A DNA stretch of 64,000 nt, from contig JAOOBR010000004.1 in assembly GCA_028404565.1 (NCBI GenBank), positions 1,827 to 65,826 on the forward strand, given 5' to 3'. This DNA comes from Pseudomonadota bacterium. GTDB taxonomy: Bacteria > Pseudomonadota > Gammaproteobacteria > Magnimaribacterales > D2472. Made by a program: the position numbers and the translations under genes. This document shows positions 13,388 to 29,474 of this stretch, piece by piece (position 1 is the stretch's first letter; every line of letters starts with the position of its first letter). The notes beneath the pieces are model-generated. The model did no database searches and was not told the DNA's origin. It worked only from the letters and a program-made list of their open reading frames with translations.

Positions 13388-14392
13388 ATGGCAGAAGATA
13401 AATCAAAGCAACTTAACGAGACTTTAAGTCAGATTGAAAAACAATTTGGTAAGGGAACTGTGATGAGAATGGGCGATAGAGAAGTTGTCGATATTCCCTC
13501 TATCTCTACTGGATCTTTGGGATTAGATATCGCTCTTGGAATTGGGGGAGTACCACAAGGTCGAGTTATTGAGATTTTCGGACCTGAATCATCTGGAAAA
13601 ACAACACTTACTTTGCAAGTGATTGCAGAATGCCAAAAAGCAGGGGGGACAGCAGCTTTTATTGATGCAGAACATGCTTTAGACCCGCTTTATGCAAAAA
13701 AACTTGGAGTTAATGTTGATGAGCTTCTGCTCTCACAACCAGATACTGGCGAACAAGCTCTTGAAGTAGCTGATATGCTTGTTAAATCTAATAGTGTAGA
13801 TCTGTTGGTGGTTGATTCAGTTGCGGCTTTAACGCCAAGAGCAGAAATTGAGGGCGAAATGGGAGATCATCATGTTGGACTTCAAGCCAGACTAATGTCA
13901 CAAGCTTTACGGAAAATTACTGGAAACATTCAAAGATCAAATGCCACTGTAATCTTTATCAATCAAATAAGGATGAAAATAGGAGTTATGTTTGGTAATC
14001 CTGAAACTACCACAGGAGGTAATGCTCTTAAATTCTACTCGTCAGTTAGATTAGATATACGAAGAATTGGTGCAGTAAAAGAAGGAGAAGAAGTCATAGG
14101 TAATGAGACGAGAGTAAAAGTAGTAAAAAATAAAGTCTCTCCACCATTTACAAAAGCAGAGTTCCAAATCTTATATGGAAAGGGAATTAATGTTGAAGGA
14201 GAAATTATCGACTTTGGACAAAAACTAGGCCTCATTGAGAAAGCAGGTTCTTGGTATAGCTACAATGATGAAAAGATTGGTCAGGGCAAAACTAATGCAA
14301 GCAATTTTTTAAGGGAAAATAAAAAAATACGAAATGCTCTTGTAAAACAAATAAAAGCAGCCCACATCAAATCAAAATCAAAGAAAAAATAA
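13388..14392 (+). CDS. recA: Recombinase RecA
   Basis: [37 protein letters not shown]. Confidence 0.99.
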
Positions 14393-14460: not shown

Positions 14461-15642
14461 ATGGCAGAAAAAGCATTTATTGTAGAGGCAGTTAGAACTG
14501 CTGGTGGAAAAAGAGATGGAAGATTAAGTTTATGGCATCCTGCAGATTTAGGGGCAAAAGTACTTGATGAGTTAGTTTCTAGACTGGATATGGATCCTGA
14601 GCTAGTAGATGATGTAATCTTTGGTTGTGTTGATCAAGTTGGAGCCCAGTCAGGAAATATTGCAAGGAATGCAGTTCTTTCTTCCTCTTTTCCTGAGTCT
14701 GTTCCTGGTACTTCTGTGGATAGACAATGCGGATCTTCGCAACAAGCAATTCATTTTGCTATTCAGGCAGTAATGTCTGGTACACAGGACATCGTCATAG
14801 GTGGTGGTGTTGAGGTTATGTCAATGGTTCCAATTGGAGCCGCAGTAAAAGACGGTTTTGATGCAGGTCATGGACTCCCATTTGATTCAGAGGGAATGAA
14901 ACAGAGATATCCAGAGATATTCTTTTCACAATTTACTGGTGCTGAACTTGTTGCAGATAAATGGAATCTTTCAAGAGAAGACCTTGATCAATTTGCTCTA
15001 GAAAGTCATCAAAAAGCAGCTAATGCAACAGAATCTAATTTTTTTGATCGTGAAATTCTTCCCGTTAAAGGCAAGAATGCTGAAGGCATTGAAGATATGG
15101 TAATCGCTGATGAGGGAATAAGATTTGATGCAAGCTTTGATAAATTGGCTGGTTTAAAGACTGTTACTGAAGGTGGAGTTATAACCGCTGGTAATGCAAG
15201 CCAAATAACTGATGGAGCTGCAGCAGTTTTAGTTTGCAATGAATCAGGCCTCAAGAAAATTCAAGCAAATCCAAGAGCAGAAATAGTATCAATCTCTGTC
15301 GTAGGAGATGACCCAGTATTTATGCTAACTGGTCCAATTCCTGCTTCAAAAAAAGCATTAGAAGCTGCAAATTTATCAATAGATGATATAGATCTTTATG
15401 AGGTCAATGAAGCATTTGCTCCTGTTCCTCTTGCATGGGCAGCTGAGCTACATGCTGATAAAGAAAAGCTTAATGTAAATGGGGGCGCAATGGCTTTAGG
15501 TCATCCCCTAGGAGCTACGGGCGCAAAACTAATGACTACACTTCTTCATGAAATGGAGAGAAGAGAGTCAAAATATGGTCTCCAAGCAATTTGTGAAGGT
15601 GGCGGAACTGCAAATGCGACCATAATAAAAAGAGTAAGTTAA
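14461..15642 (+). CDS. Thiolase (acetyl-CoA C-acyltransferase)
   Basis: DRQCGSS catalytic Cys, NEAFA, GGAMALGHPLGATG, CEGGG. Confidence 0.95.
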   Translation: MAEKAFIVEAVRTAGGKRDGRLSLWHPADLGAKVLDELVSRLDMDPELVDDVIFGCVDQVGAQSGNIARNAVLSSSFPESVPGTSVDRQCGSSQQAIHFAIQAVMSGTQDIVIGGGVEVMSMVPIGAAVKDGFDAGHGLPFDSEGMKQRYPEIFFSQFTGAELVADKWNLSREDLDQFALESHQKAANATESNFFDREILPVKGKNAEGIEDMVIADEGIRFDASFDKLAGLKTVTEGGVITAGNASQITDGAAAVLVCNESGLKKIQANPRAEIVSISVVGDDPVFMLTGPIPASKKALEAANLSIDDIDLYEVNEAFAPVPLAWAAELHADKEKLNVNGGAMALGHPLGATGAKLMTTLLHEMERRESKYGLQAICEGGGTANATIIKRVS

Positions 15643-15673
15643 AGAAACCCTAAGTAGATACTCTAAAATTGTT

Positions 15674-17116
15674 ATGCAATCAGGCCTTAAGAATTCTTAT
15701 GCCCAGGATTTGCCTGAGTTATCAAAGAAGTGTATTCCTTCTGGATTCCAGAATTCTGAAATAATTCTTAAAAATTATGAACTTGGCGAGGAGCTTGGTT
15801 TTAGTAAAAAGTTCTTAGACTCTGATAAATGTCTAAATGTTTTCAGTGGTAATGTATTACTTAGAGATTCAATGCCTATTGCACAAGCATATTCCGGACA
15901 TCAATTTGGACAATTTAATCCAAATCTTGGTGATGGAAGAGCGATCTTGCTTGGAGAGATTAACAATCTAGATATTCAATTAAAAGGTATTGGACAAACG
16001 CCTTTTTCTAGAAGAGGAGACGGAAAATCTGCTCTTAGTCCTGTATTAAGAGAATACATAATAAGCGAATTCATGAATGCAGCTGGGATACCAACAACTC
16101 GAGCACTTCTTGCTTTAAAAACTAATGAAAGTGTAACAAGAGACACTGAGCTTCCTGGAGGTATTCTTGTAAGAGTTGCTAATAGCCATATAAGAATAGG
16201 TACATTCGAGTTTGCTGCTATGCAAGGTACTCAGATATTAAAAAAGTTAGCAGATTATTCTATTCTTAGACATTACCCTGAATTAAAAAATTCCAATGAC
16301 AGATATATAAAGTTTTTTGCTGCTGTATGTGAAAGTCAGACAAGATTAGTTTCTAAGTGGATGAATATTGGATTTATTCATGGAGTTATGAATACAGATA
16401 ATGTGACTGTTTCTGGAGAAACGATTGACTATGGACCATGCGCTTTTATGGATTATTATGATCCAAAGACAGTTTTTAGCTCAATAGATGTTGCAGGAAG
16501 GTATTGTTATGGAAATCAACCTGCAATTCTTGTTTGGAATCTTTCTAAATTAGCTGAAGCTCTCATCCCCCTCATTGATGATAATGAGCAAAAATCAATT
16601 GAAAAATTAACTGAAGTTCTTCAAGAAGTAATGCCTTCCTTCGAAAAATACTTTTACTCAGAAATGGGAGAAAAGCTAGGTATTGATTCGATAAATCAAA
16701 ACAATATAAATCTTGTAAAAGATTATCTTAAAATATTAGATTCAAATTCAATTGATTTCACTCTGTCCTTTAGAGACTTATCAAAAATACTCAACAAGAC
16801 GAAGAGTATAGAGGATTCAGTTTTTAAAAATTCAGGCGATTTCAAGAAGTGGACTGAAGACTGGATGATAAAAATTATTACAGAAAAGACCAATCCTAAA
16901 GACATTGCAAAGAAAATGGATTTAACTAATCCATGTTATATCCCTAGGAATCATATTATCGAGGATGCGCTTGAAAATGCTGTAAACGGCGACATGAATC
17001 TTATCAATGAAATTCTTAAGCTATATAATAATCCCTTTGATGAGAATGAACATACTGAAACTTTTAAGAAGCCCTCTGAAACAAATACACCATTTGTAAC
17101 ATTTTGTGGTACTTAA
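15674..17116 (+). CDS. selO: Protein adenylyltransferase SelO/YdiU
   Basis: YSGHQFG...LGDGRA, QLKG.G.TPFSRRGDG, HGVMNTDN, IDYGP, C-terminal TFCGT. Confidence 0.93.
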   Translation: MQSGLKNSYAQDLPELSKKCIPSGFQNSEIILKNYELGEELGFSKKFLDSDKCLNVFSGNVLLRDSMPIAQAYSGHQFGQFNPNLGDGRAILLGEINNLDIQLKGIGQTPFSRRGDGKSALSPVLREYIISEFMNAAGIPTTRALLALKTNESVTRDTELPGGILVRVANSHIRIGTFEFAAMQGTQILKKLADYSILRHYPELKNSNDRYIKFFAAVCESQTRLVSKWMNIGFIHGVMNTDNVTVSGETIDYGPCAFMDYYDPKTVFSSIDVAGRYCYGNQPAILVWNLSKLAEALIPLIDDNEQKSIEKLTEVLQEVMPSFEKYFYSEMGEKLGIDSINQNNINLVKDYLKILDSNSIDFTLSFRDLSKILNKTKSIEDSVFKNSGDFKKWTEDWMIKIITEKTNPKDIAKKMDLTNPCYIPRNHIIEDALENAVNGDMNLINEILKLYNNPFDENEHTETFKKPSETNTPFVTFCGT

Positions 17117-17126
17117 AAGTACTAGT

Positions 17127-17648
17127 TTAGTTTTTTATTCTTAGTGTTCCAGCAAAATCAAGTTTACCTATTTCAAGACCCTTAACTCTGAACAGATCAT
17201 ATAATGTTGTAACATGAAAATAGAAATTAGGAAGTGAGAAAGAAAGAATAAAGTCCTCTGCTGTAAAGGACCATTCTATTTGCCCCATTCTAAACATTAC
17301 TTCTTTACCTGAAAGAGAATTTATATCTTCATCAGAAAAATGATTTAATTTTTCCTCAGCATTTTCAAGCATATCAATAAGATCATTGAAACTTAAATTC
17401 TCTGGCATTTTTGGAGGAGCGAATTCACCTGTTTTTAGAGCATCTATAGCACCTACAGAATGATGAACGACACTGAAAACTTGGAAAGTTAATGGAGCCA
17501 TGTCCTCTATCAATCTCATTTCAGCTAGATCATTTAAGTTTGTACCTTCATCAGTAAAATATTTTTCAGCTTTCTTCATAATAGCTAAAGATGCAGGAAG
17601 AAGCTGTTTGTAAGTTTTAAGCGATGCATCGCTGAGCAAAATACTCAT
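17127..17648 (-). CDS. DUF1993 family (DinB-like) protein
   Basis: RLIEDMAPLTFQV, SLPNFYFHVTTLYDLFRVKGLEIGKLDF; AAGGAG RBS upstream. Confidence 0.88.
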   Translation of the reverse strand: MSILLSDASLKTYKQLLPASLAIMKKAEKYFTDEGTNLNDLAEMRLIEDMAPLTFQVFSVVHHSVGAIDALKTGEFAPPKMPENLSFNDLIDMLENAEEKLNHFSDEDINSLSGKEVMFRMGQIEWSFTAEDFILSFSLPNFYFHVTTLYDLFRVKGLEIGKLDFAGTLRIKN

Positions 17649-17661
17649 ATTTTTCTCCTTT

Positions 17662-18927
17662 TTAAATTATTTCCTCTACTTCATTCAAAGCAGAAGCCAC
17701 TTTCTCTCCATTCCTGAAGATAATTTCAACCTTTTTATGATCCGTAAAATTTTTACCAAAAACGATCGATACAGGAACGCCAATTAACTCAGAATCTTTT
17801 ATCTTTTTCCCAAAACCATCATCTCGATCATCCAATACTACCTCGAACCCTTTCTGAGTGAGCTCTTTATAAAGTTTTCTGGATGATGCTTCAATATTTT
17901 TGTCTTTATCAGCCCCGATTGTAATTATATTTAAATCAAAAGGAGAAATAGATTTTGGCCAAATAATTCCCTTATCATCAAAATTTTGTTCAATTGCAGC
18001 CGCGACTATCCTTGAGATACCTATTCCATAACATCCCATGTGCATGTTTTTAGCTTTACCTGAGTCATCTAAAACAGTCGCATTCATATTTTCGCTATAC
18101 AGCTTGCCCAATTGGAATATATGTCCCACTTCAATACCTTTTGTAATTTCCAGCAATCCATTCCCATCAGGTGATTCTTGTCCAACTAGTGATTTTGAAT
18201 CTTGACCATTTTCAAGCAAAAGCTCAGCATTAACCGCATAATCAGATTTATCAGATACTGCAAGAGTATCTTCACCATTTTCTGCAAGTACATGAAATTC
18301 CTCAGATTTATCTCCACCAATTGCGCCTGAGTCTGCTTTTACTATTTTAAAATCTAGCCCTATTCTCTCAAAAATTTTTGAGTAGGCATTTCTCATTATT
18401 TGGTATGTTTCTTCCAAGCTTTCTTCAGAAAGATGAAAGCTGTAAGAATCTTTCATTAAGAATTCTCTACTCCTCATCACTCCATATCTTGGTCTTATTT
18501 CATCTCTAAATTTAGTTTGTATTTGATATATATTCAAAGGAAGCTCTTTATAACTTTTGACATTATTTTTAATTAAATCAGTTATTACTTCTTCATGAGT
18601 AGGACCTAGGCAAAAATCTCTATCGTGACGATCTTTAAATCTAAGCAATTCTGGACCAAATTTATCCCATCTCTTTGATTCATTCCATAAGTCCTTTGGT
18701 TGCACCATCGGCATTAGCACTTCATGCGCTCCCGCATTGTTCATCTCTTCTCTAACAATATTTTCAACCTTATTTAAGACCCTTAAACCAAGCGGAAGCC
18801 AAGTATAAATCCCAGAGGCATTTTTTCTTATCATGCCAGACTTAAGCATGAGGCTATTACTTATAACTTGAGCATCTTCAGAAGCAGTATCTTTTAGCGT
18901 AGGAATGAAATAATTTGACCAAAACAT
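17662..18927 (-). CDS. proS: Proline--tRNA ligase lacking the INS editing domain
   Basis: [37 protein letters not shown]; only 421 aa. Confidence 0.97.
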
Positions 18928-18992
18928 ATCTATTTTATTTTTGCATATAAAAAATACTTATAGTTTATAATTTTATAGTTTTTTTTAGTTAT

Positions 18993-19274
18993 ATGCCCAT
19001 TTATGAATACAAATGCTCAAATTGTGGGCACCAATTTGAAAAAATACAGAAATTTTCGGATGATCCACTAAAAAAATGTCCAAATTGTGATAAAAATGCT
19101 TTAAATAAGTTAATATCCAGCCCATCATTTAGGCTTAAGGGCAGTGGATGGTATGAAACTGACTTTAAAACAGGTAATAAAAAGAACATACTAAATAAGG
19201 AAAAAGATACTAAAGACTCCACAAAGTCTAAAAAAAAGAATAAGGATAGCGGAAAGGTAAGCAATGAGAACTGA
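18993..19274 (+). CDS. FmdB family zinc-ribbon protein
   Basis: [11 protein letters not shown]...CPxC...[11 protein letters not shown]; usual position upstream of aspS. Confidence 0.92.
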
Positions 19275-21027
19275 ATACTGTGGGAATGTAACTAAAGAAC
19301 ATTTAGGAAAAGATGTTTCAATATGTGGTTGGGTCCATCGAAGGCGAGACCATGGTGGCGTTATTTTTCTTGATATAAGAGATCTTGAGGGTATTTGTCA
19401 GGCAGTTATCGATCCATCAAACGAAGAGGCATTTTCCCTTGCAGATAAATGTAGAAGCGAGTTTGTTATTAATATAAAAGGAAGTGTCCGAGAGCGACCT
19501 GAGGGAACTGTTAACTCTAAAATGAAGACTGGGGAGATTGAAATAGAAGTAAGCGAATTAGAGGTTTTAAACTCTGCTGCAACACCAGCATTCCCTCTAG
19601 ATGATTACCAAGATGTTAATGAGGATGTTCGATTAAAAAATAGAATCCTAGATTTAAGAAGACCTGAAATGAATAATAGGATTCTTAAAAGATCTAAAAT
19701 CGTATCTACCATAAGAAATTTTTTAGAAGGCAGAAGTTTCAATGAAATAGAAACTCCAATACTCACAAGAGCAACTCCTGAAGGAGCAAGGGACTATATT
19801 TTGCCAAGCCGTGTTCACCCCGGAAGCTTTTACGCTCTTCCTCAGTCCCCTCAACTTTTCAAGCAAATGCTCATGATGGGAGGAATGGACAGATACTATC
19901 AAGTTGCAAGATGTTTTAGAGATGAAGATCTAAGAGCAGACAGACAGCCTGAATTTACTCAGATTGATATAGAAGCATCTTTTGTTGAGGAGAAAGATAT
20001 CATTGAGCTTGGCTCAAGCTTACTAAAGCTTTTGCTTAAAGATTTTGCAAATCACAACATAGATAATATTGATGAACTTGACTATGCGGATGCTATTAAT
20101 AAATACGGCTCAGACAAACCTGATCTAAGAATACCTCTTGAGTTGATAGAGATTTCTGATGAAGCTAAAAAGGAGGAATTTAAAGTTTTCTCTGATCCTG
20201 CAAAAAATGATGGATCAAGAGTTGTTGCTTTAAAAGTAGATGGAGGAAATAAACTTACAAGATCTCAAATAGATGAATATACAAATTTTGTAGGTAAATT
20301 GGGAGCAAAAGGGCTTGCTTATATAAAAATTAATGATGCTTCTGACATCGAAAATGGACTCCAATCTCCAATTCTTAAGTTCCTTTCTAAAGACTTCATT
20401 ACTGATCTTTTTAACAAGCTGAATCCTGTAGATGATGACTTAATTTTCTTCGGTGCAGGACCTTCTGAGGTAGTTAATTTAAGTATGAGCTCTTTAATAA
20501 AGAAACTTGGAAAAGATTTAGATTTATATCAAAACGATTGGGCGCCATGTTGGATAACTAATTTCCCAATGTTTGAAAGCGATGCAGGTAATTTGAAGGC
20601 GCTCCATCATCCATTTACAAGACCTAAAGAGGATCTAGAAAAATTTAGAAAGGATCCATCTGGTGCTCAAGCTTATGCTTATGATCTAGTTCTCAACGGA
20701 TATGAAATCGGCGGAGGTTCTTTGAGGGTTCATGACTCTAAAATGCAATCGGCTATCTTTGATGCTCTAAATATTTCAAGTGAGGAGGCAAGTCTTAAGT
20801 TTGGATTCTTGCTTGATGCTCTTAAAACTGGATGTCCGCCTCATGGCGGTATAGCTCTAGGTCTTGATAGAATTGTCATGCTGCTAACTGAAACTGAAAA
20901 TATAAGAGATGTAATTGCATTCCCTAAGACTCAAAGCGCATCATGTCTTCTTACAGACGCTCCAAATATTGTTGATGAGTCTCAACTTAACGAACTGCAT
21001 ATTAAAAAAGATCTTGATGAGGAATAA
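19264..21027 (+). CDS. aspS: Aspartate--tRNA ligase, probably non-discriminating (Asp/Asn)
   Basis: [37 protein letters not shown] and RPEG are of the ND type. Confidence 0.97.
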
Positions 21028-21030
21028 ATA

Positions 21031-21774
21031 ATGGCTGGTCATTCCAAATGGGCAAATATAAAACATAGAAAAGCCAGACAAGATGCTAAAAGAGGAAAGA
21101 TATATACTAAATTGATCCGTGAGCTTACCGTTGCAGCAAAAGCAGGTGGCGGTGATCCTAATGATAACCCTAGATTGCGATTGGCTCTTGATAAAGCTAA
21201 TTCTGAAAATATGCCTAAAGATACAATAAATAGGGCTATAGAGCGGGGAACTGGTGCAGGAGAAGCTGGGAACCTTGAGGAAATTACATATGAAGGATAT
21301 GGTCCAGGAGGGGTTGCTGTTTTAGTTGAGGCAATGACTGATAATCGAAATAGAACTGTTGCAGATGTTAGACATGCATTCACAAAATTTGGAGGTAATC
21401 TTGGTACAGATGGTTCCGTTAGTTACTTATTTAACAAAATTGGCCTTGCGATGATTGAAAAAAATCAAGATGAAGATGCAGTAATGGAAATTTTATTGGA
21501 TTTTGATGGTGAAGACCTAGAAGATACTGGAGATAATTTTGTAGCGACAGTGCCATCTCAAAATCTTTCTGCATTTGTAGAGAAGCTAAAGGAACAAGGG
21601 ATAGAAGTTGAAAATGCAGAGGTCACAATGAAAGCTGATACAAGCGTACCTGTTGATCAAGAAATGGGAGAAAAAGTTCTAAGGATTCTTGATTTTTTAG
21701 ATGAAGTAGATGATGTTCAAGAAGTACATTCAAATGCAGAATTTCCTGACGACTTTAAACCTTCGGAGCATTAA
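21031..21774 (+). CDS. yebC: YebC/PmpR family protein
   Basis: MAGHSKWANIKHRK, YEGYGPGG, TDNRNRT. Confidence 0.97.
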   Translation: MAGHSKWANIKHRKARQDAKRGKIYTKLIRELTVAAKAGGGDPNDNPRLRLALDKANSENMPKDTINRAIERGTGAGEAGNLEEITYEGYGPGGVAVLVEAMTDNRNRTVADVRHAFTKFGGNLGTDGSVSYLFNKIGLAMIEKNQDEDAVMEILLDFDGEDLEDTGDNFVATVPSQNLSAFVEKLKEQGIEVENAEVTMKADTSVPVDQEMGEKVLRILDFLDEVDDVQEVHSNAEFPDDFKPSEH

Positions 21775-22199
21775 TGCCAGTTAATTCTAGAGCAAAGGGA
21801 GCTAATTTTGAGAGAGAAATTGGAAACCTTCTTGTAAAAGATTTAGGCTTAAAGAATCCTGTCAAAAGGATTCTTGAACAGACTAGAACGAAAGAATTGC
21901 CCGATCTCATGTTAGGAAGATGGTGTATTGAATGTAAACGTTATGGTGATGGCTCTGAGCCAAGTGCTGATTGGTGGAATCAAGTGCTTATCGCATCAAG
22001 AAATGACAATCAAATACCAGCTTTGGTTTATAAATTTAATAGGAAACCGCTAAAAGTTAGAATTCTGGCATCAAGTATAAATACTAAGATTGAAAATCAA
22101 GATATAACCGTTGATCTATCATGGGAAGATTTCATTTCAATTATTAAAGAATTATTTTTAGAAGATATTGACTTACATGAAAAAAGTTCACAGGTGTAG
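21774..22199 (+). CDS. Putative Hjc-like (archaeal/phage-type) Holliday junction resolvase, PD-(D/E)XK fold
   Basis: N-terminal SRAKGANFERE, PD44 and IE53CK55 match the Hjc catalytic E...D...ExK pattern. Occupies the ruvCAB slot. Confidence 0.8.
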   Translation: MPVNSRAKGANFEREIGNLLVKDLGLKNPVKRILEQTRTKELPDLMLGRWCIECKRYGDGSEPSADWWNQVLIASRNDNQIPALVYKFNRKPLKVRILASSINTKIENQDITVDLSWEDFISIIKELFLEDIDLHEKSSQV

Positions 22200-22593
22200 A
22201 GATTTCAACATTTTTGTTTTTGTTGAGGATACTGATTTTCAGGGAATTGTTTACCACGCAAATTACTTGAAATATTTCGAAAGAGCGCGATCAAGCTGCC
22301 TTAAAGATCTTGATATTTCTCAGAGTGAGGAAATTGTTGCAGGAAAAGTTTTTATCATAAAGACTATAAATATTGAGTTCGTAAAACCAGCTAAGATTGA
22401 GGATAATTTGGTTGTTTCCTCAGAAATTGAATACTCATCTAATGCTCGACTATTCTTTCATCAACAAATCAAAAGGAAAGAAAGTGATGATATTATATGT
22501 AGTGGAAAAGTTGAGGTATGTTTTTACGATCAAAATAAAGATAAACCAGTTGCTTTCCCAAAAAAATTATTAAAAGTCTTTAAAAATGAATGA
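22177..22593 (+). CDS. ybgC: Tol-Pal-associated acyl-CoA thioesterase YbgC
   Basis: EDTDFQGIVYHANYLKYFERAR; precedes tolQ. Confidence 0.93.
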   Translation: MKKVHRCRDFNIFVFVEDTDFQGIVYHANYLKYFERARSSCLKDLDISQSEEIVAGKVFIIKTINIEFVKPAKIEDNLVVSSEIEYSSNARLFFHQQIKRKESDDIICSGKVEVCFYDQNKDKPVAFPKKLLKVFKNE

Positions 22594-23269
22594 AGTATCA
22601 GCTATAGAGTTATTTTTACAAGCAGGAATAGTTGTTAAGTCAGTAATGATTGTTTTGATTTTTGCTTCGATTATTTCATGGATAATTATCTTTGAAAGAT
22701 ACATTTTCTTTAGGAAAGCTAATGAAAATAGATTTATTTTTGAGGATAAATTCTGGTCAGGAACTGATCTAAATGATCTTTATACTGAACTTGATGAATT
22801 AGATGTTGATTTAATTGGCTCAACAAGTGTTTTTAAAAATTCTTTCAAGGAATTTAAAAGGATATCAAACAGGAGCGGACTAACAGATATGGACTTAGAA
22901 GGTCTCAATAGATCTATGAGAGTTTCTATAGCAAGAGATGAAGAGGATATGAATAAAAATTTATCGATACTTGCAAATATAGGTTCAGTGAGTCCTTATA
23001 TTGGCCTATTTGGAACAGTTTGGGGAATTATGGGTTCTTTCCAAGGCCTTTCAGATGCAACACAGGCTACTATTAATGCTGTTGCACCAGGGATATCTGA
23101 GGCTTTAATTGCAACAGCTATGGGTCTTTTTGCAGCTATACCAGCTGTAATAGCTTTTAATAGATTTACTTCAAAAGCAGATTCTTATTTACAGACAACA
23201 ACAATTTTTGCTGAAGAGCTTGCAAGCATCTTCTATAGAGAATCAGTAAAGCAAAAAGATGATCTATAG
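22586..23269 (+). CDS. tolQ: TolQ
   Basis: SPYIGLFGTVWGIM, VAPGISEALIATAMGLFAAIPAV. Confidence 0.96.
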   Translation: MNEVSAIELFLQAGIVVKSVMIVLIFASIISWIIIFERYIFFRKANENRFIFEDKFWSGTDLNDLYTELDELDVDLIGSTSVFKNSFKEFKRISNRSGLTDMDLEGLNRSMRVSIARDEEDMNKNLSILANIGSVSPYIGLFGTVWGIMGSFQGLSDATQATINAVAPGISEALIATAMGLFAAIPAVIAFNRFTSKADSYLQTTTIFAEELASIFYRESVKQKDDL

Positions 23270-23681
23270 AATAGGTCGAAGAAAGAAACTACATGCAGAA
23301 ATTAATGTAGTCCCCTACATTGATGTAATGCTCGTATTACTAATAATCTTTATGGTTTTATCACCACTATTAATACAAGGTATTGATGTTAATCTGCCTA
23401 GAACAGATACAACAAAAATGTCAATTCAGAATGAGCCTTTGGTAGTATCAATCGATAAAAATGGTAATTATTTTCTTAATCTGGGGGAAGAAGAAATTGC
23501 AATTTCGCTTGATGAGCTTAAAGACAAGGCATTTGTTATTTTTGATGCTAATCCAGAAATTGAAGTTGTTTTTAAAGGAGATGAGGCAGCTGATTTTCAA
23601 AGTGTGGCAGCTGCAATGGCGGCAGTTCAAAGTGTTGGCATTGCAAAAATAGGAATTGTAACTTCGGGATATGATGACTAG
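23259..23681 (+). CDS. tolR: TolR
   Basis: EINVVPYIDVMLVLLIIFM. Confidence 0.95.
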   Translation: MIYRIGRRKKLHAEINVVPYIDVMLVLLIIFMVLSPLLIQGIDVNLPRTDTTKMSIQNEPLVVSIDKNGNYFLNLGEEEIAISLDELKDKAFVIFDANPEIEVVFKGDEAADFQSVAAAMAAVQSVGIAKIGIVTSGYDD

Positions 23682-24294
23682 CACTAATATACTTATTGCA
23701 TCCTTTTATTCTTTCTTAATTCATGCAGGCCTGTTTTTAGGATTTTTTGGATATTTTGAACAAACTTCAAAGCCAAACAAAATACTTAGCTCGCCTCTTA
23801 GTGTAAAAATGCTTGTCGAGGAAGTAACTCCAAACACTCAAAAAAAGAACTATGTAAAGATGCAGCCAGATATTTACAAGGAACCTATTATTGAATCAGC
23901 AGAAATAATTCAGGAAGTTATGAAAACAAAATCTTATGCGATATTTGACTCTGGAATAGATTCCTTATTGAGTGAAGAAAAAGATTCTGATAATGCTTAT
24001 GATGACGATATTGTAAGATTTTATAATGCAATAAAGCTTAAGATTGAATCAGCATGGATTAAGCCAAGAAATATTCCATCTAACCTTTCATGTGATCTAA
24101 AAATTACAATTAATCCACAAGGCAGAGTAGTTGGCTTAAATCTTTTAAAAAGTAGTGGGAATATAAGATTTGATAACTCTGCTATGCAGGCGGTAAGAAG
24201 GGTTGAAACTTTTTTTATCTTTAAAGAGATGGAAAGACAAGTTTATGAGGAAACTTTTAAAAACATTATCTTTAGATTTAATCCAACAAAATGA
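23671..24294 (+). CDS. tolA: Short TolA (TM anchor plus C-terminal domain)
   Basis: TM helix with SxxxH motif, C-terminal IESAW..P...SSGNIRFDNSA; lies between tolR and tolB. Confidence 0.82.
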   Translation: MMTSTNILIASFYSFLIHAGLFLGFFGYFEQTSKPNKILSSPLSVKMLVEEVTPNTQKKNYVKMQPDIYKEPIIESAEIIQEVMKTKSYAIFDSGIDSLLSEEKDSDNAYDDDIVRFYNAIKLKIESAWIKPRNIPSNLSCDLKITINPQGRVVGLNLLKSSGNIRFDNSAMQAVRRVETFFIFKEMERQVYEETFKNIIFRFNPTK

Positions 24295-25580
24295 AATTTT
24301 TAAAATACTTTTTGATATTCCCACTTTTCTTGAATGCTGAGCTAGTAATTGAGATTACAAAAGGTTCTGATAATCCATACCGAATAGCATTAATTCCATT
24401 CCAAGGAGAATCTGGTGCAGCAAAACAAGCTAACGAGATTGTGAAGAATGATCTTATTAGAACAGGAGAATTTTATATTTTTGATGAGAAGTCTTTGATT
24501 GCATATCCACCCAGTGAAGAAGAAATTAATTACAGTGACTGGAGACTTATAAACGCTGATTTTCTTCTTCTTACATCAGTTATTGATAGCAATTCAGGTA
24601 TTGAAGCCAGATATGAAATATTTGATGTTAGGAAAAAATCTAAAATTAGAAGCTCAAAGGTTTATGGAGTTACTAATAATGTAAGACAGCTATCGCATTA
24701 TGTAAGTGATGGGATTTATGAAGCAATTACAGGAATCCAAGGCGTCGCATCAACAAAGATACTTTATGTAAGTCAGTCAAATGATGTTGATACCTCATAC
24801 AGGCTTTATGTCGCAGATGCAGACGGAGTTAATGAGCAACTTTTAGTGAAAAGTCCTGAGCCAATAATATCTCCAGCCTGGTCACCTGATTCCAAGAAGG
24901 TCGCTTATGTTTCTTTTGAAACTGGCATTGCAAATGTATACATTCAGGATATTTCAACTGGAGAGAGACAATCAATTATTGAGAAAAGGTGTTTGACATG
25001 CATCTCTAATGAACAAATTAGTTCTCCCTCTTGGTCGCCAGATGGGAAGTATCTGTCATTAACTTTATATCAAGATGGAAATGCTGAGATTTATATTTAT
25101 AACCTCCAAAAAAGAAATCTAACAAGGTTAACAAATCATTATTCCATTGATACAGAATCTCAATGGTCGCCTGATGGGAGGAAACTGATGTTCACTTCAG
25201 GAAGGTCTGGCTCACCACAATTGTATGAGCTAGATTTACGAAAGCTAAACAAAAAGCCAAAACGCTTAACATTTGAAGGAAATTACAACGCAAAAGGTTC
25301 TTATCTTCCAGGTGGAGAGGGCATTGTTTTTGTTCACAGGTCCTCTGATAAATTCCAAATAGCGATAAAATATTTTGAAGACAATTTTGTGATTCCTCTT
25401 ACTGATGCAAAAATGGATGAATCTCCTAGTGTTTCTCCAAATGGTAATGTGATAATCTATGCTATAAGCGAACAAAATAATGACATTTTGGCAGGAGTAA
25501 CTTTAAGTGGAGCCAAGTTCCGTTTACCCTCTGCAAAAGGTCAGGTAAGAGAACCAGCTTGGTCAGGTTTCTTAAAATAA
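24291..25580 (+). CDS. tolB: TolB
   Basis: Signal peptide, ELVIEITKG, repeated PxWSPDG (PD40) units. Confidence 0.94.
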   Translation: MKFLKYFLIFPLFLNAELVIEITKGSDNPYRIALIPFQGESGAAKQANEIVKNDLIRTGEFYIFDEKSLIAYPPSEEEINYSDWRLINADFLLLTSVIDSNSGIEARYEIFDVRKKSKIRSSKVYGVTNNVRQLSHYVSDGIYEAITGIQGVASTKILYVSQSNDVDTSYRLYVADADGVNEQLLVKSPEPIISPAWSPDSKKVAYVSFETGIANVYIQDISTGERQSIIEKRCLTCISNEQISSPSWSPDGKYLSLTLYQDGNAEIYIYNLQKRNLTRLTNHYSIDTESQWSPDGRKLMFTSGRSGSPQLYELDLRKLNKKPKRLTFEGNYNAKGSYLPGGEGIVFVHRSSDKFQIAIKYFEDNFVIPLTDAKMDESPSVSPNGNVIIYAISEQNNDILAGVTLSGAKFRLPSAKGQVREPAWSGFLK

Positions 25581-25592
25581 ATGGGAGATAAA

Positions 25593-26075
25593 ATGCAATT
25601 AATTAAATCTTTTTTCACAATTTCTCTAGTGACAATATTTATTGTTTCATGCAGCTCTGTTCAGGTAACTGAGGAGTCTGTAAGAGAATCAAGTATTGCA
25701 ACTGTAGAGGTATCAACATCTGATACCTATGAAACAAAATCAACGGCTGTATCAACTTCTGCAACAATTTATTTTGATTTTGACAAATACAATCTTACAT
25801 CTAGATCTATTCAAACGTTAAGAGGTGTAATTTCAGCGATGAAAGATAACTCTTCCATAACTCTTGTTCTTGAGGGACACGCAGATGAAAGAGGGACTAG
25901 AGAATATAATTTAGCTCTAGGACAACGAAGAGCTGAGTCTGTTGCTGATTATCTTGAATCAAGAGGAATAAATAGATCAAGACTGGTAATCAAAAGTTAT
26001 GGAGAGGAAAGTCCAGCTGTTTCTGCGTCTAATGAGAGAGCTTGGGCAAGGAATAGAAGAGTAGAAATAAAATAA
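25593..26075 (+). CDS. pal: Peptidoglycan-associated lipoprotein Pal
   Basis: Lipobox IVSC, IYFDFDK, EGHADERGTREYNLALGQRRA, NRRVEI. Confidence 0.96.
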   Translation: MQLIKSFFTISLVTIFIVSCSSVQVTEESVRESSIATVEVSTSDTYETKSTAVSTSATIYFDFDKYNLTSRSIQTLRGVISAMKDNSSITLVLEGHADERGTREYNLALGQRRAESVADYLESRGINRSRLVIKSYGEESPAVSASNERAWARNRRVEIK

Positions 26076-26079
26076 ATTT

Positions 26080-26721
26080 ATGCGATTTGCATTTATTTTC
26101 CTTGCATTAACTTCTTTTCAATCTTTTTCTCAAGGTTTTGAAAATACGGAATCTGATATTTTGTTTCTCAAAATACAAGAGCTTGAACAGGAAATTGCAG
26201 AGCTAAGAAATGAGCTTGAAACACAAGCATATCTTCTTGAAAAGCTTCTCAATGAGTTAAAGTCTATTGGGGACGAATCAGAGGCAGGATCGACAGAGGA
26301 AATTGTCGATGAGGATATTTTTAGATTTGAGGGCATCAATGATTCGCAAAGTATTGATGAGATTTATGATTCTGCGATAAATGCACTTGAGAATGATGAT
26401 TTAGAAAATGCAAAAAGGCTTTTAGATTTTTTTCTGATTAATTTCCCAGATGCCGAACGAATTCCCCTTGTTTTATTTTGGTTAGGAGAGATATCTTTTA
26501 TAAATGGAGATATTGATGATAGCTTTATATATTTTCTAGAACTTGTTTCTAATCATGAAGATCATTGGAGAGCTCCCCAATCACATAAGCGACTTGGTGA
26601 CATTTATCTTTCAAAAGATGATTTAGATAATGCTAAAGCAAAATATAATTTTGTATTAAAAAACTATCCCAATAATTCTGTATCATCAATTGTCTTGCAG
26701 ATATTGGAAAATATGGAATAA
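26080..26721 (+). CDS. cpoB: Tol-Pal periplasmic TPR protein CpoB/YbgF
   Basis: Signal peptide, coiled coil, TPR helices (FWLGE, YPNNS); follows pal. Confidence 0.85.
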   Translation: MRFAFIFLALTSFQSFSQGFENTESDILFLKIQELEQEIAELRNELETQAYLLEKLLNELKSIGDESEAGSTEEIVDEDIFRFEGINDSQSIDEIYDSAINALENDDLENAKRLLDFFLINFPDAERIPLVLFWLGEISFINGDIDDSFIYFLELVSNHEDHWRAPQSHKRLGDIYLSKDDLDNAKAKYNFVLKNYPNNSVSSIVLQILENME

Positions 26722-26744
26722 TCACCATCTTTAGTATTATGAAT

Positions 26745-26820
26745 GGGTCGCTAGCTCAGTTGGTAGAGCAGTTGGCTTTTAACCAATTGGTCACAGGTTC
26801 GAATCCTGTGCGACCCACCA
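26745..26820 (+). tRNA. tRNA-Lys (anticodon UUU)
   Basis: 76-nt cloverleaf GGGTCGCTAGCTCAGTTGGTAGAGCAGTTGGCTTTTAACCAATTGGTCACAGGTTCGAATCCTGTGCGACCCACCA with encoded CCA. Confidence 0.98.
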
Positions 26821-26823
26821 CTT

Positions 26824-28065
26824 ATGAATGATTATCTAGATACATTAAAGCAGTCTTTTTCAAAAGATTCTTTTCTAGCTAGTCTTTTTTTCTTTTTTGT
26901 TCTTTCCTCGTGGTACACATTAAGACCTCTAAGGAATGAGCTAGCCGTTCAGGATATTGATAACATATCTCTACTTTTGGCTATGGTTGGAATCGGAATG
27001 CTATTTGCCAACCTCATTTATTCATGGGTAGCTTCAAAAACAAATCTTAAGCAGCTAATTATTTTTTGCTATCTTTTTCTTGCCAGCAACTTAGTAGTTT
27101 TTATAAATCTTGATTTTTCCTCAAGCGCATGGGTAGGAAGATCCTTCTATGTTTGGTGCAACATTTATAGTTTTTTTGTTGTAGCAATTTTTTGGGTAGT
27201 GGCTATAAATCTATTTCGACAAAACAAAGCAAAAAAATACTTTGGATTTATTTCATTTGGCGGCACTTTAGGAGCAGCTTTTGGTTCAAGATTATCAAAA
27301 TATATTGCTAACAATTTCTCAATTACTCCTATTGACGGTGGTCCTGAAGAAATAAATATCTCAATATTTGCTATTTTTACATTAGGACTTTTGATAATTG
27401 GTTTATTAATTGGTCTATATTGTATTGGTAGAGTCAAAAGCGAGAATATTGCTCTTGGCGGCTCTGCCAAAGATGCATTCAAAAATCTTTTTGATTCTAG
27501 TGATGTCAGACAACTCGCTGTATATATGTTCTTATTTACATCGCTGATGACTATTCATTGGATAACTTCAGCAATTATATTTGAAGAAGCAATAGAAAGC
27601 TCAATCGAGAGGGTAGCACTTTTTGCTGATATTGAGCTAGCAGTTAGCTTAATTGCTGGAATAACACAAATATTTCTTACCTCTTTTATTGTTAAAAGGC
27701 TGGGCATTAAATTTATTTTATTTTCTTATGGAGTAATTTTTTCAATTGTATTTATTGTTTACGCTTTTGCTCCTTTACTAATTTCTGCGATTCTAGTAAC
27801 TATTTTTCTCAGAGTATTCGAGTATTCAATCAATAAACCAAGTAGGGAGATTGTTTTTAGCCACTTATCCAAAAATAAAAGATATAAATCCTCAGTTCTT
27901 GTTGATACTTTTTTTGCCCGCTTAGGAGATTTTAGTGGAAGCATTTTCTTGGGTTTATTTAAAGGAACACAAGTAGCTTTTAGTTTTGCACCAATAATGG
28001 CAATTCCATTTGCTGTAACTATTTCAATAATTGGATCAAGAATCTCAAAAATCTTAAAAAATTAG
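26824..28065 (+). CDS. MFS-fold transporter of the ATP/ADP translocase (NTT/AAA, COG3202-like) family
   Basis: About 12 TM helices; YTLRPLRNE, FYVWCNIYSFFVVAIFW, YSINKPSRE.....RYK....DT...RLGD motifs. Confidence 0.8.
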   Translation: MNDYLDTLKQSFSKDSFLASLFFFFVLSSWYTLRPLRNELAVQDIDNISLLLAMVGIGMLFANLIYSWVASKTNLKQLIIFCYLFLASNLVVFINLDFSSSAWVGRSFYVWCNIYSFFVVAIFWVVAINLFRQNKAKKYFGFISFGGTLGAAFGSRLSKYIANNFSITPIDGGPEEINISIFAIFTLGLLIIGLLIGLYCIGRVKSENIALGGSAKDAFKNLFDSSDVRQLAVYMFLFTSLMTIHWITSAIIFEEAIESSIERVALFADIELAVSLIAGITQIFLTSFIVKRLGIKFILFSYGVIFSIVFIVYAFAPLLISAILVTIFLRVFEYSINKPSREIVFSHLSKNKRYKSSVLVDTFFARLGDFSGSIFLGLFKGTQVAFSFAPIMAIPFAVTISIIGSRISKILKN

Positions 28066-29474
28066 ATTCTTTTATTTAGCTTTTCTCTTAAATTATTTAT
28101 TTTAGTCATTATTATTTCGAATGTTTGGAAATTATCCTGAGATAATTTAAGAGCAAATTGAAGCTCATTAAGAGCTCTTTCGTTTTGACCTAGCAGGATA
28201 AAATATTCCGCTCTGCTTTGGTGATAACCAGCTACATTAAGATTATCTTTTTGAATTTCTGAAAGTAAAAACCACAGGCTTGGATCTGAATTTCTTCTTA
28301 GAAGTGTATCTCGCAGTATTTCCTCTGCAGCTATGGTTTTTTCAAGACCTCTTAACACTCTGGCTTTTTCAATCGTTAGCGGATAGTTTTTGGGTGAAAT
28401 TTCTAATTGCTCATTAACCAAAATAAGAGCTTCCTCATATTTCTTTGATTCTCTTAAGATTTCTATTTTTGTTGTGTTCAAGATAAGATTTTTAGGATAC
28501 ATATCTAAAAGCTGATTTATTTGAATAAGACTTTCTTCGAATCTGCCATTTAAAGATAAGGCTCTTGAGAAGCCATAAATATTTTGTATATTTCTGTTTG
28601 TATTAACTTTATTTTCAAATATTCGGATTGCATTTATTGGTAGCTCTTCATAATCAGCCTCAAGCCTTCCCTTAATTAATCTATAATTGACGCTATTTCT
28701 TACACCTCCGATATCTCCAAGCTGATCTGCTGCATTAAATGCATCACTTACTCTGGTCGAAGAAATTGGGTGGGTTAAAAGAAACTCGGGTATATTATCT
28801 CCATAGAACCTCCTTAATGCAGCCATGTTTTCAAACATTTCGCCCATTGCTTTTGGATCATATCCAGAAGCAACGCAATTCTCAAAACCGAATCTATCTG
28901 CTTCTCTTTCAAATGCTCTGCTGTATCTTAATGATTGTTGTTGAAGAAAAGCAGGTCCAGCAATAAATGCTCCTGGATTATTTGTAGCAATTGCAACTGC
29001 AATTGAAGAAACAAGTATTAAAGCTGAAGCAAGGTTTCTATCTTGAGATCTCAATACATTTCTTTGGAAGTGTCTTTGGCTTAGATGAGCTAATTCATGA
29101 CATAACACAGATGCAAACTGAGACTCATTATCAGCATTTAAAAAAAGGCCTCCGTTTATGCCAACAATACCCCCAGGTGCTGCAAAAGCATTTAAAGACG
29201 GATCATCAATTAAAATAACAGTGAAATCTCTGTCATCAACTAGACTTGTCTCAGACAATCTATAAAGCAGAAGCTCTGAATATTCCTGAATAATTGGATC
29301 TACAATTAAAGCTGCCTGAGAATAGACTTGTTGCAAGAATTGCTCACTTAGAAGCTCAACCTCTGCTTCAGAAATCGCCCCAGATACTCTATCCCCAAGC
29401 TCCGGAAGCTCTATATCTACTTGCGCATTGGCAAAGCTTGATAGTAAAAATAGTGTTATTAATATTTTTTGCAT
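28062..29474 (-). CDS. bepA: M48 metalloprotease BepA/YfgC
   Basis: Signal peptide, LPELGD, NAFAAPGG, HELAH, EREADR, FLLTHP, C-terminal TPRs. Confidence 0.92.
   Translation of the reverse strand: MQKILITLFLLSSFANAQVDIELPELGDRVSGAISEAEVELLSEQFLQQVYSQAALIVDPIIQEYSELLLYRLSETSLVDDRDFTVILIDDPSLNAFAAPGGIVGINGGLFLNADNESQFASVLCHELAHLSQRHFQRNVLRSQDRNLASALILVSSIAVAIATNNPGAFIAGPAFLQQQSLRYSRAFEREADRFGFENCVASGYDPKAMGEMFENMAALRRFYGDNIPEFLLTHPISSTRVSDAFNAADQLGDIGGVRNSVNYRLIKGRLEADYEELPINAIRIFENKVNTNRNIQNIYGFSRALSLNGRFEESLIQINQLLDMYPKNLILNTTKIEILRESKKYEEALILVNEQLEISPKNYPLTIEKARVLRGLEKTIAAEEILRDTLLRRNSDPSLWFLLSEIQKDNLNVAGYHQSRAEYFILLGQNERALNELQFALKLSQDNFQTFEIIMTKINNLREKLNKRI

Follow-up and report, generated by a model that had tools for sequence, protein, structure and literature searches.

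How do bacteria of the SAR86 cluster resolve Holliday junctions if the place of their ruvC, ruvA, and ruvB genes is occupied by a single small open reading frame (ORF)? The question is raised by a 64,000-nucleotide stretch of DNA (the window, to which positions given without a contig refer) from a genome of this cluster, which includes SAR86A and SAR86B. The genome has a size of 1.08 Mb, is divided into 31 contigs, and is 79% complete. The ORF spans positions 21774–22199 of the + strand, starts with an ATG codon, and encodes a protein of 141 residues, a candidate Holliday-junction resolvase of the PD-(D/E)XK type (PF24608 PDDEXK_15, phrog_244). The original prediction, made from the letters of the window alone, was that a domesticated, Hjc-like resolvase of phage type had displaced ruvC-ruvA-ruvB in situ and does the job of RuvC, possibly without the RuvAB motor. 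The comparisons described here show that the ancestor of the whole SAR86 order carried the ORF at the place of ruvC-ruvA-ruvB, that RuvABC is gone, and that vertical descent has since maintained the ORF as a tightly packed core gene. Judged from its sequence, the product is likely to be a PD-(D/E)XK junction resolvase that took over the job of RuvC.

The ORF is enclosed by yebC (21031–21774, + strand), the product of which contains TACO1/YebC domains identified by Pfam (179.8 and 119.1 bits), and by the thioesterase gene ybgC (22177–22593, + strand; Pfam 4HBT_2 and 4HBT). The stop codon TAA of yebC (21772–21774) gives its last A to the start codon of the ORF, forming the sequence TAATG, and the 3' end of the ORF overlaps with ybgC by 23 nucleotides if ybgC starts with the ATG at 22177, or by 32 nucleotides if it starts with the TTG at 22168. 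The cluster tolQ-tolR-tolA-tolB-pal-cpoB follows at 22586–26721 of the + strand. YebC, YbgC, and TolQ (Pfam MotA_ExbB) were identified by family models, and proS, aspS, tolR, tolA, tolB, pal, and cpoB were named from their translations and synteny. All neighbours of the ORF are conserved housekeeping genes. There are no signs of a mobile element around the ORF, and no repeat brackets it within 19000–25000; the repeats of this segment occur in two copies only, are short and imperfect (16–28 nucleotides, 71–88% identical to the reference copy), and are at the level of chance. The original description of the locus, a 141-residue ORF embedded in an operon with this flanking gene order and with neither phage genes nor repeats nearby, holds in each of these respects.

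The order of the flanking genes in other genomes was determined by tblastn. The outgroups were 18 RuvC-centred loci from closed or large-contig genomes of the class Gammaproteobacteria. In 16 of them, yebC is located at most 1 kb from RuvC, and in 12 of them yebC is followed by ybgC or tolQ past a gap of approximately 2.3–3.0 kb. The outgroup locus L079 contains, according to Pfam, RuvC, RuvA, and RuvB, and then a 4HBT thioesterase. The SAR86 loci are organized as yebC, ORF, and ybgC. All 15 fetched loci, which represent all four families of the order (f1–f4), have the arrangement proS, zinc-ribbon ORF, aspS, yebC, ORF, ybgC (with the reservation given below), tolQRAB, pal, and cpoB. Furthermore, the order yebC-ORF-ybgC-tolQ was found in 79 of 80 named SAR86 loci, which are the most similar ones and mostly belong to family f1; the remaining locus reaches yebC and the ORF only. 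The spacing from yebC to the ORF is −1 to +3 nucleotides in all 80 loci, and the ORF overlaps with ybgC in all 79 loci that could be scored, by the same length in 78 of them. Because of the yebC-ybgC/tolQ layout of the outgroups, the 0.43-kb ORF can be placed exactly where the approximately 2.3 kb of ruvC-ruvA-ruvB are expected, and the in-situ displacement of these three genes in SAR86 is well shown, as is the ruv slot that had been proposed for the locus.

The loci of family f4 differ in one detail. Two of them (L067 from genome G045 and L074 from genome G057) have no detectable ybgC, and the gap between the matches to the ORF and tolQ is approximately 25–30 nucleotides; in f4, ybgC has apparently been lost or relocated. 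In the third f4 locus (G042, in which bases are missing) nothing was detected past the ORF.

The set of relatives consisted of 61 genomes (the genome of the window and 60 others) from four families and 19 genera, 43 of them of high quality. A homologue of the ORF, with a sequence identity of 46–98%, is present in 58 of these genomes, and all four families and 19 genera are represented. The three misses are gaps in the assemblies: the contig ends 29 nucleotides past yebC in G006 and inside yebC in G031, and in G007 yebC was also not found. The distribution is thus not patchy. Outside the order, PF24608 was found in two of 297 genomes of the class, both of which contain RuvC; one of the matches is below the cut-off and surrounded by housekeeping genes, the other is part of a prophage. 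Genome G246 from the class sample (1.1 Mb) was considered as a second case of displacement and rejected: its PF24608 match is below the cut-off and outside the slot, and RuvC is kept. Among 400 other genomes of the phylum, nine, from nine different families and all 2.9–4.9 Mb in size, contain PF24608. A second, distant copy was observed in SAR86 genome G022 (L076:6017–6433, contig C4), with 36–38% identity and 42.8 bits, next to a gene for a 628-residue Toprim/AAA_25 primase-helicase; it is probably an independent mobile copy, in a small integrated element or phage remnant.

Genomes were searched for recombination genes in six reading frames. For RuvC, the 61 relatives were complemented by a set of 104 genomes of the order that are at least 85% complete, the genome of the window included, 57 of which are of high quality (at least 90% complete). 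RuvC was found in none of the 61 and in none of the 104 genomes. No relative had a match above the cut-off to the ruvB model TIGR00635 (best 29.5 bits versus 299) or to the ruvA model TIGR00084 (best 26.5 bits versus 85), and RusA and RecU were each detected in 0 of 61. The genome of the window contains no match to RuvC, RuvA_N, or RusA, and tblastn with outgroup RuvC, RuvA, and RuvB against all its contigs yielded only a cross-match to ClpX. Weak RuvB_N AAA+ matches, considered as diverged RuvB, are best assigned to ClpX by Pfam, and weak matches to the ruvA model, in ORFs of about 200 residues near ORFs of the size of dnaX, were rejected as RuvA and read as putative helix-hairpin-helix motifs of RecR. 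As a control, the search detected RuvC in 293 of 301 genomes sampled evenly across Gammaproteobacteria, including genomes of 0.3–0.4 Mb (the count includes the unpublished genomes G099, G200, and G354, all positive for RuvC; leaving these out gives 290 of 298). Three of the eight negative genomes are the members of the SAR86 order in the sample. Another, G192, is a gammaproteobacterium from outside SAR86 (2.4 Mb, 99% complete) with neither a RuvC nor a PF24608 match, and may hold yet another resolvase solution.

The loss extends to other genes of branch migration. RadA/Sms (TIGR00416) was found in none of the 61 relatives at E<=1e-30, and the same model detects RadA in all 10 bacterial control genomes; RadA is reported to be present in almost all eubacteria (PMC4786428). 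Full-length RecG is present in all 24 genomes of families f2, f3, and f4, and in all 13 genomes of five f1 genera, in one of which it is cut by a contig end. It was found in none of 24 genomes of the f1 genera g1, g2, g4, g5, and g6, which include the genome of the window and the one- and two-contig genomes G011, G036, G014, and G034. The best match of the RecG search in G011 is Mfd, and weak RecG-like matches were rejected as diverged RecG for the same assignment. The location in the genome of the window that is attached to the RecG observation is contig C29:47950–49266. Because the sampled members of the RecG-less genera form one clade on a tree of the flanking genes (99/99), the loss of RecG looks like a single later event. 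With RuvAB, RadA, and RecG all gone, the subclade to which the window belongs would be without any of the three branch-migration motors known from bacteria.

Other parts of the recombination machinery are kept. RecA is present in all five genomes tested and is located approximately 5–11 kb from the ORF in four closed relatives; in the window, the Pfam RecA match (479.2 bits) extends over 13406–14191 of the + strand (G000:C26:15232–16017), 7.6 kb upstream of the ORF. XerD and a second Xer-type recombinase are also present in all five genomes. The absence of ruvA, ruvB, ruvC, rusA, and recU from all relatives agrees with the original prediction, no intact ruvABC was found elsewhere in the genome, and the suggestion that the ORF protein acts without the RuvAB motor is strengthened by the order-wide absence of RadA and by the lack of RecG in the subclade.

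The ORF protein matches the Pfam family PF24608 (PDDEXK_15, putative PDDEXK endonuclease of phages) with 38.5 bits (cut-off 27, E 1.4e-9) and the phrog_244 profile with 55 bits (E 2.4e-14). A HMMER scan of 1.84 billion representative sequences identified 356 representative homologues at E<=1e-3. Alignment A1 contains the ORF protein and 48 near-full-length sequences picked from 150 listed representatives, all 49 of which match PF24608. Residues G9, E13, R32, D44, E53, K55, and P82 are invariant in A1, and R6, K8, Q36, W67, W68, and Q70 are nearly invariant. In alignment A2, which contains 108 sequences, D44 and K55 occur without exception, and 90% or more of the sequences retain E13 and E53. 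The number of homologues, the invariant residues, and a ratio of nonsynonymous to synonymous substitution rates (dN/dS) of about 0.05 indicate that the ORF is more than a product of chance. Residues E13, D44, E53, and K55 make up the catalytic set E...(P/G)D...(D/E)xK of the PD-(D/E)XK superfamily. The first motif acid and the adjacent arginine (SRAKGANFE13R14E) are encoded at 21810–21815 (E13 at 21810–21812), the "PD" of P43 and D44 at 21900–21905 (D44 at 21903–21905), and the "ExK" of E53, C54, and K55 (in I52-E53-C54-K55) at 21930–21938, all on the + strand.

The residues pointed out in the original prediction are therefore all present and conserved across the family, and the assignment to the PD-(D/E)XK class agrees with both the PF24608 match above the cut-off and the conserved catalytic set. 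Its "PD" pattern exists in the ORF protein as described, but P43 is peculiar to the SAR86 clade, and the wider family mostly has a glycine at this position. The lack of a RuvC signature was also recovered: the Pfam RuvC model (PF02075, RNase H-like fold) has no match in the ORF protein or in the six-frame translation of its genome. The Pfam models for RusA (PF05866), RecU (PF03838), and Mrr_cat (PF04471) have no match in the ORF protein either.

The remote relatives of the family point to archaeal resolvases. Hjc of Pyrococcus furiosus (1gef) is the top PDB match for the profiles of A1 (E 0.013), A2 (E 0.091), and A3 (E 0.032), the last of which contains 29 divergent family members. The larger profile A2 did not give a better E-value for Hjc than A1 (0.091 versus 0.013). 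The other PDB matches listed include Hje 1ob8 (0.22) and Hjc 4tkd (0.53). The most common secondary Pfam family in A1 is Hjc (three of 49 members, best E 0.047), followed by Mrr_cat (two of 49 members, best E 0.0059). The nearest named ESM-Atlas clusters, with PF24608 excluded, are Hjc (0.87), RecU (0.85), and Hjc/RecU (0.81), values that are all below 0.9 and serve as leads only. Residues E9, R10, R25, D33, E46, K48, and K81 are reported as essential in P. furiosus Hjc (PMC10956419). In the A1-profile alignment, which is weak (E 0.013), these seven residues are aligned with the identical E13, R14, R32, D44, E53, K55, and K87 of the ORF protein, each of which is conserved in at least 97% of a set of 35 SAR86 sequences that covers 17 of the 80 named loci (the pattern-based extraction missed the others). 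The original designation "Hjc-like" can be kept as far as Hjc is the nearest named relative, being the top PDB match of three profiles, but not as a family assignment, since the scores are sub-significant and the protein is outside Pfam Hjc. From these similarities, the family is best described as a putative PD-(D/E)XK endonuclease of tailed phages, the nearest named relatives of which are resolvases of the Hjc/RecU type.

Several features of the protein lie outside the catalytic set. The SAR86 sequences share a C-terminal tail, …DLxWxDF…ELFxxDIxxHE… (22110–22196), in which D114, L115, F120, and D131 are conserved in at least 97% of sequences, and they differ from the wider family in the clade-specific residues L26, I33, T37, P43, G48, G58, and P63. 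Host adaptation or the binding of a partner may account for the tail. Residues 75–136 (21996–22181) have sub-threshold similarity to ribosomal protein L25: the PF01386 match has E 0.0028 and 18.5 bits versus a cut-off of 23.6, the L25 models are the only NCBIfam matches of the ORF protein and are also sub-threshold, and L25 chains of the PDB match with E 0.04. The resemblance may reflect a shared beta-rich segment or chance. In the viral subgroup L122–L128 (IMG/VR contigs), the proteins have 199–201 residues, with approximately 60 extra C-terminal residues. A single predicted protein of 368 residues (P0351, from a contig of 7,491 nucleotides) combines YebC domains with a PDDEXK_15 domain that is 69% identical to the ORF protein. 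We do not regard this fusion as a true longer form: it occurs on a single contig and, given that yebC and the ORF are separated by 0–3 nucleotides, is probably a read-through or sequencing artefact.

Using tblastn, the family was identified in 62 phage records with 26–35% identity. The matches include Roseobacter CRP phages, in which the protein is annotated as "putative PDDEXK endonuclease", Pseudomonas phages, and Salmonella and Escherichia phages of the Rosemountvirus type, in which it is labelled "RusA-like Holliday junction resolvase". The phrog_244 profile also matches the homologues from phage contigs and prophages, and the nearest representatives from outside SAR86 are located on IMG/VR contigs of up to approximately 54 kb. 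The phage genes are surrounded by genes of recombination and replication. In one context, the homologue adjoins genes for a RecE-like exonuclease, a Sak-like annealing protein, a replication initiator, and a primase/helicase; in a second, genes for SSB, another PD-(D/E)XK nuclease, and a primase/helicase; in a third, a DNA primase gene; and in a fourth, genes for a Sak-like protein, SSB, and a replication initiator. On the contig of P0128, exonuclease VIII is encoded directly upstream. In a lambdoid-type prophage of genome G272, genes for a replication initiator, a P-like loader, a dUTPase, and a YbcO-domain protein are followed by the PF24608 gene. Since ybcO is followed by rusA in E. coli DLP12, the PF24608 gene of G272 occupies the position of rusA, so that the family is found at an established resolvase position in a second setting, independent of the first.

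The ORF is under strong purifying selection. Its dN/dS value (NG86) is 0.053, compared to 0.063 for aspS, 0.032 for yebC, 0.029 for tolQ, and 0.176 for ybgC, calculated from nine close SAR86 sequences with gap-free full-length matches and from pairs with dS of 0.02–2. The guanine and cytosine (GC) content of the ORF is 0.336 and its codon index 0.704, compared to 0.341 and 0.707 for the genome, and the GC content at third codon positions matches that of the host as well.

Two trees of the family were calculated. The quick tree has 147 rows, with representatives shorter than 118 or longer than 175 residues left out; in it, 18 in-slot SAR86 proteins and nine unnamed representatives form one clade (SH-aLRT support 99), and the viral rows are dispersed over other parts of the tree. 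The careful tree has 63 rows and includes 30 of 107 representatives, with six near-duplicate viral rows, G246, and G272 dropped; in it, the 18 SAR86 rows and a pair of sequences from phage contigs, P0128 and L228, form a clade with 100/100 support. The pair has a long branch, and its placement differs: the quick tree puts it at the base of the clade, the careful tree makes it the sister of f1 (91/73). The ORF tree recovers each of the families f1, f2, and f4 as monophyletic, and it branches within f1 in the same way as the flank-gene tree, which was calculated from aspS, yebC, tolQ, and tolB (1,483 columns, G042 left out). No strongly supported conflict between the two trees was seen. Because of this agreement and of the monophyly of the families, the sequences fit a single capture in or before the ancestor of the order, followed by vertical descent. 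The membership of P0128/L228 in the SAR86 clade makes a phage lineage the nearest relative of the SAR86 proteins. The phage-type origin proposed for the ORF is thus supported by the PF24608/phrog_244 family as a whole, by its relatives in phage recombination modules, and by this nearest lineage.

The locus is also represented in RNA data. Eleven RNA-labelled runs contain 0.40–0.48 of the sampled words of the locus, and contigs from four RNA libraries (four studies) cover positions 20900–23300. One RNA-library contig of 2,483 nucleotides spans yebC, the ORF, ybgC, and tolQ, and both gene junctions are bridged by contigs from two other RNA runs. RNA run X4 has some low-depth bins within the ORF. 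The contigs are consistent with co-transcription of the ORF with yebC and ybgC, an agreement that falls short of proof. A scan for promoters and terminators gave no enrichment (17 promoter-like sequences versus 31 expected, and four terminator-like sequences versus 4.1), and is uninformative on transcription units.

In the proposed mechanism, RecA would make joint molecules and four-way junctions. The ORF protein would bind the junction structure as a homodimer, and a Mg2+ site formed by E13, D44, E53, and K55 would introduce paired nicks into opposing strands, as in Hjc and phage resolvases. Junctions would thereby be resolved without the RuvAB scanning motor, and XerC/D would resolve the chromosome dimers that arise from crossovers. 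Branch migration would be carried out by RecG where it survives; in the subclade of the window, which has neither RuvAB, RecG, nor RadA, it might be driven by RecA or be spontaneous. The complete scenario, which we propose tentatively and at somewhat less than an even chance, is that SAR86 combines RecA recombination with a motor-free, phage-style PD-(D/E)XK dimer that replaced RuvABC at the base of the order, that RadA is gone and RecG was later lost in a subclade, and that the ELFxxDIxxHE tail is maybe a newly evolved docking motif for a host partner. The tail can be likened to the PIP motif, which couples Hjc to PCNA.

It has to be considered whether the ORF protein is instead a PD-(D/E)XK nuclease with a role in other DNA processing, such as the cleavage of flaps, forks, or nicks, or repair. 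Junctions would then be handled by RuvX/YqgF, be dissolved by a helicase and a topoisomerase, or be avoided, and the occupation of the slot would be an accident of one insertion-deletion. Several observations weigh against a resolvase in this way. RuvX/YqgF, for which a role as a back-up resolvase has been suggested (PMC1193525), is present in all five genomes tested. The resemblance to Hjc is marginal: it is sub-significant by sequence (best E 0.013), the single ORF sequence matched no PDB chain, and Pfam Hjc (PF01870) has no match in the ORF protein or in the six-frame translations of five genomes. The PHROG tag "RusA-like" is an annotation only and names the wrong family, since Pfam RusA fails to match. 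No published study of a PF24608/PDDEXK_15 member, and no characterised one, was found in the searchable literature. Phage resolvases are reported to be typically promiscuous on branched DNA (PMC3864405), and the sub-threshold L25 matches cover residues 75–136. The occupied slot is possibly the by-product of one insertion-deletion event and not a functional replacement. As to the history and expression of the gene, the monophyly of the SAR86 proteins was not rejected by an approximately unbiased test (p 0.46), nor was it demonstrated; the phage lineage that is the nearest relative (P0128/L228) may have been either donor or recipient; and the RNA-library contigs possibly contain DNA and show neither strand nor expression level. 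Finally, the genome of the window is 79% complete and many of its relatives are incomplete metagenome-assembled or single-amplified genomes, although the one- and two-contig genomes agree with the results from the incomplete ones.

Against a role in other DNA processing stands the direction of the similarities, three remote lines of which lead to Hjc, Hje, and RecU and not to other PD-(D/E)XK families. Moreover, the catalytic and DNA-binding residues of Hjc are conserved, and a lambdoid prophage carries, independently, a member of the family at the position of RusA. RuvC/RecU and YqgF are reported to co-occur in most genomes and not to be simple analogues (PMC1193525). We consider this explanation unlikely, with an appreciable residual chance of being correct, and continue with the junction resolvase as the preferred interpretation.

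A further possibility is that the ORF encodes a selfish or defence nuclease, such as a restriction enzyme, an Mrr-like protein, or a toxin, which hitch-hiked into a conserved operon. Some automatic names of its relatives are "Restriction endonuclease (type IV Mrr)", and Mrr_cat matches weakly in two of the 49 members of A1 (best E 0.0059). However, no methyltransferase or partner gene adjoins the ORF, which is flanked by yebC and ybgC in 79 of 80 loci. A PADLOC search gave matches of 13–15 bits to unrelated models, which are at the level of chance, and none for five of seven proteins. Defence genes are typically patchy, and the ORF is fixed in the whole order, descends vertically, and has a dN/dS value at the level of housekeeping genes, which makes a defence role very improbable. 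That RuvABC is present but unassembled or too divergent to be recognized, with the ORF as an addition and not a replacement, might be suspected from the 31 contigs and 79% completeness of the genome and from the many metagenome-assembled and single-amplified relatives, but is hardly credible given the 104 genomes without RuvC (57 of them at least 90% complete), the several single-contig genomes, one labelled "chromosome", the sensitivity of the six-frame search even at 0.3–0.4 Mb, the negative tblastn with outgroup RuvC, RuvA, and RuvB, and an ancestral slot that is filled and has no room left.

Two other features of the region lie further from the ORF. The zinc-ribbon ORF between proS and aspS (18993–19274) encodes 93 residues with a CxxC…CxxC pattern, and its 3' end overlaps with the start of aspS. 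It keeps its position between proS and aspS across the SAR86 order, and is also located upstream of aspS in several outgroups. A gene for tRNA-Lys (26745–26820) is the sole tRNA gene within 15000–29000.

The ORF protein can be compared to resolvases of archaea, Firmicutes, and phages. It resembles the archaeal Hjc and Hje proteins (1GEF, 1OB8, 4TKD; PF01870) in length, approximately 120–140 residues, and in the motif E...(P)D...ExK, and it is predicted to act without RuvAB, as Hjc does. Archaeal Hjc is reported to restore repair in E. coli lacking RuvC (PMC10956419). Unlike Hjc, the ORF protein is outside Pfam Hjc, to which its similarity is at E of approximately 0.01–0.1; its family has a WW-x-Q block and a conserved R32/Q36 region, and the SAR86 members have the C-terminal tail; and its host is bacterial and its origin phage. 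In Firmicutes and Mollicutes, the replacement of RuvC by RecU is a lineage-wide non-orthologous displacement by a resolvase of the PD-(D/E)XK superfamily (PMC3403352; PMC1193525). The SAR86 case is similar in that RuvC is displaced throughout a lineage, and RecU is among the nearest named ESM clusters. However, RecU lineages are reported to keep RuvAB, with recU located far from ruvAB (PMC3403352), whereas SAR86 is also without RuvA and RuvB, and the new gene is in the old ruv slot.

Activation of RusA suppresses ruv mutants in E. coli. The ORF resembles the lambdoid rusA of DLP12 in that its family is phage-borne and is predicted to be able to serve the host, and in that the prophage PF24608 gene likewise follows a YbcO-domain gene. 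RusA has an unrelated fold and belongs to an unrelated family, and rusA of E. coli is a gene of a cryptic prophage beside an intact RuvABC, whereas the SAR86 gene is a fixed core gene. The phage PDDEXK_15/phrog_244 genes are of the same family, have the same length and motif, and are 26–40% identical to the ORF, and the phage copies are located in recombination and replication modules. Phage and prophage copies occur sporadically in cellular genomes, whereas the copy of SAR86 extends to the whole order, has a host-like composition, and is part of a housekeeping operon. T7 endonuclease I has the architecture of a domain-swapped dimer, and no sequence similarity between it and the ORF protein was detected in the searches made. 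It is a junction resolvase of phages that belongs to the nuclease (restriction-enzyme-like) superfamily (PMC10956419).

That one resolvase is displaced by a non-orthologous one, for example RuvC by RecU, is known. The SAR86 case differs in that the whole of RuvABC is replaced in situ, that the incoming gene is from an uncharacterised phage family, and that the host is free-living and globally abundant. In the literature searched, which did not extend to subscription journals and supplements, we found no published account of the loss of ruvC or of a Holliday-junction replacement in SAR86. The bacteria that lack RuvA and RuvB are reported to make up less than 2% of the total, and to be mostly parasites whose genomes are reduced (PMC3403352). 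In a survey of 117 genomes, RuvAB was missing from only two that contain RecA, both with RecG, and prophage proteins were suggested as possible stand-ins for resolvases (PMC1193525).

RuvAB and RuvC/RecU are regarded as an almost universal core of recombination in bacteria, and yet an entire order of free-living bacteria that abound in the surface ocean is without RuvA, RuvB, RuvC, and RadA, one subclade also without RecG, and keeps RecA and XerCD. It follows that ruv and radA genes are not to be expected in SAR86 genomes, and that they may bias estimates of completeness if they are among the markers. If the proposed function is correct, PDDEXK_15/phrog_244, which is common in marine and enterobacterial phages, would gain a predicted function, and SAR86 would provide a clear-cut natural example in which one phage gene took the place of a molecular machine made from three genes during genome streamlining. 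The limits of recombination without a dedicated branch-migration motor would then become directly testable.

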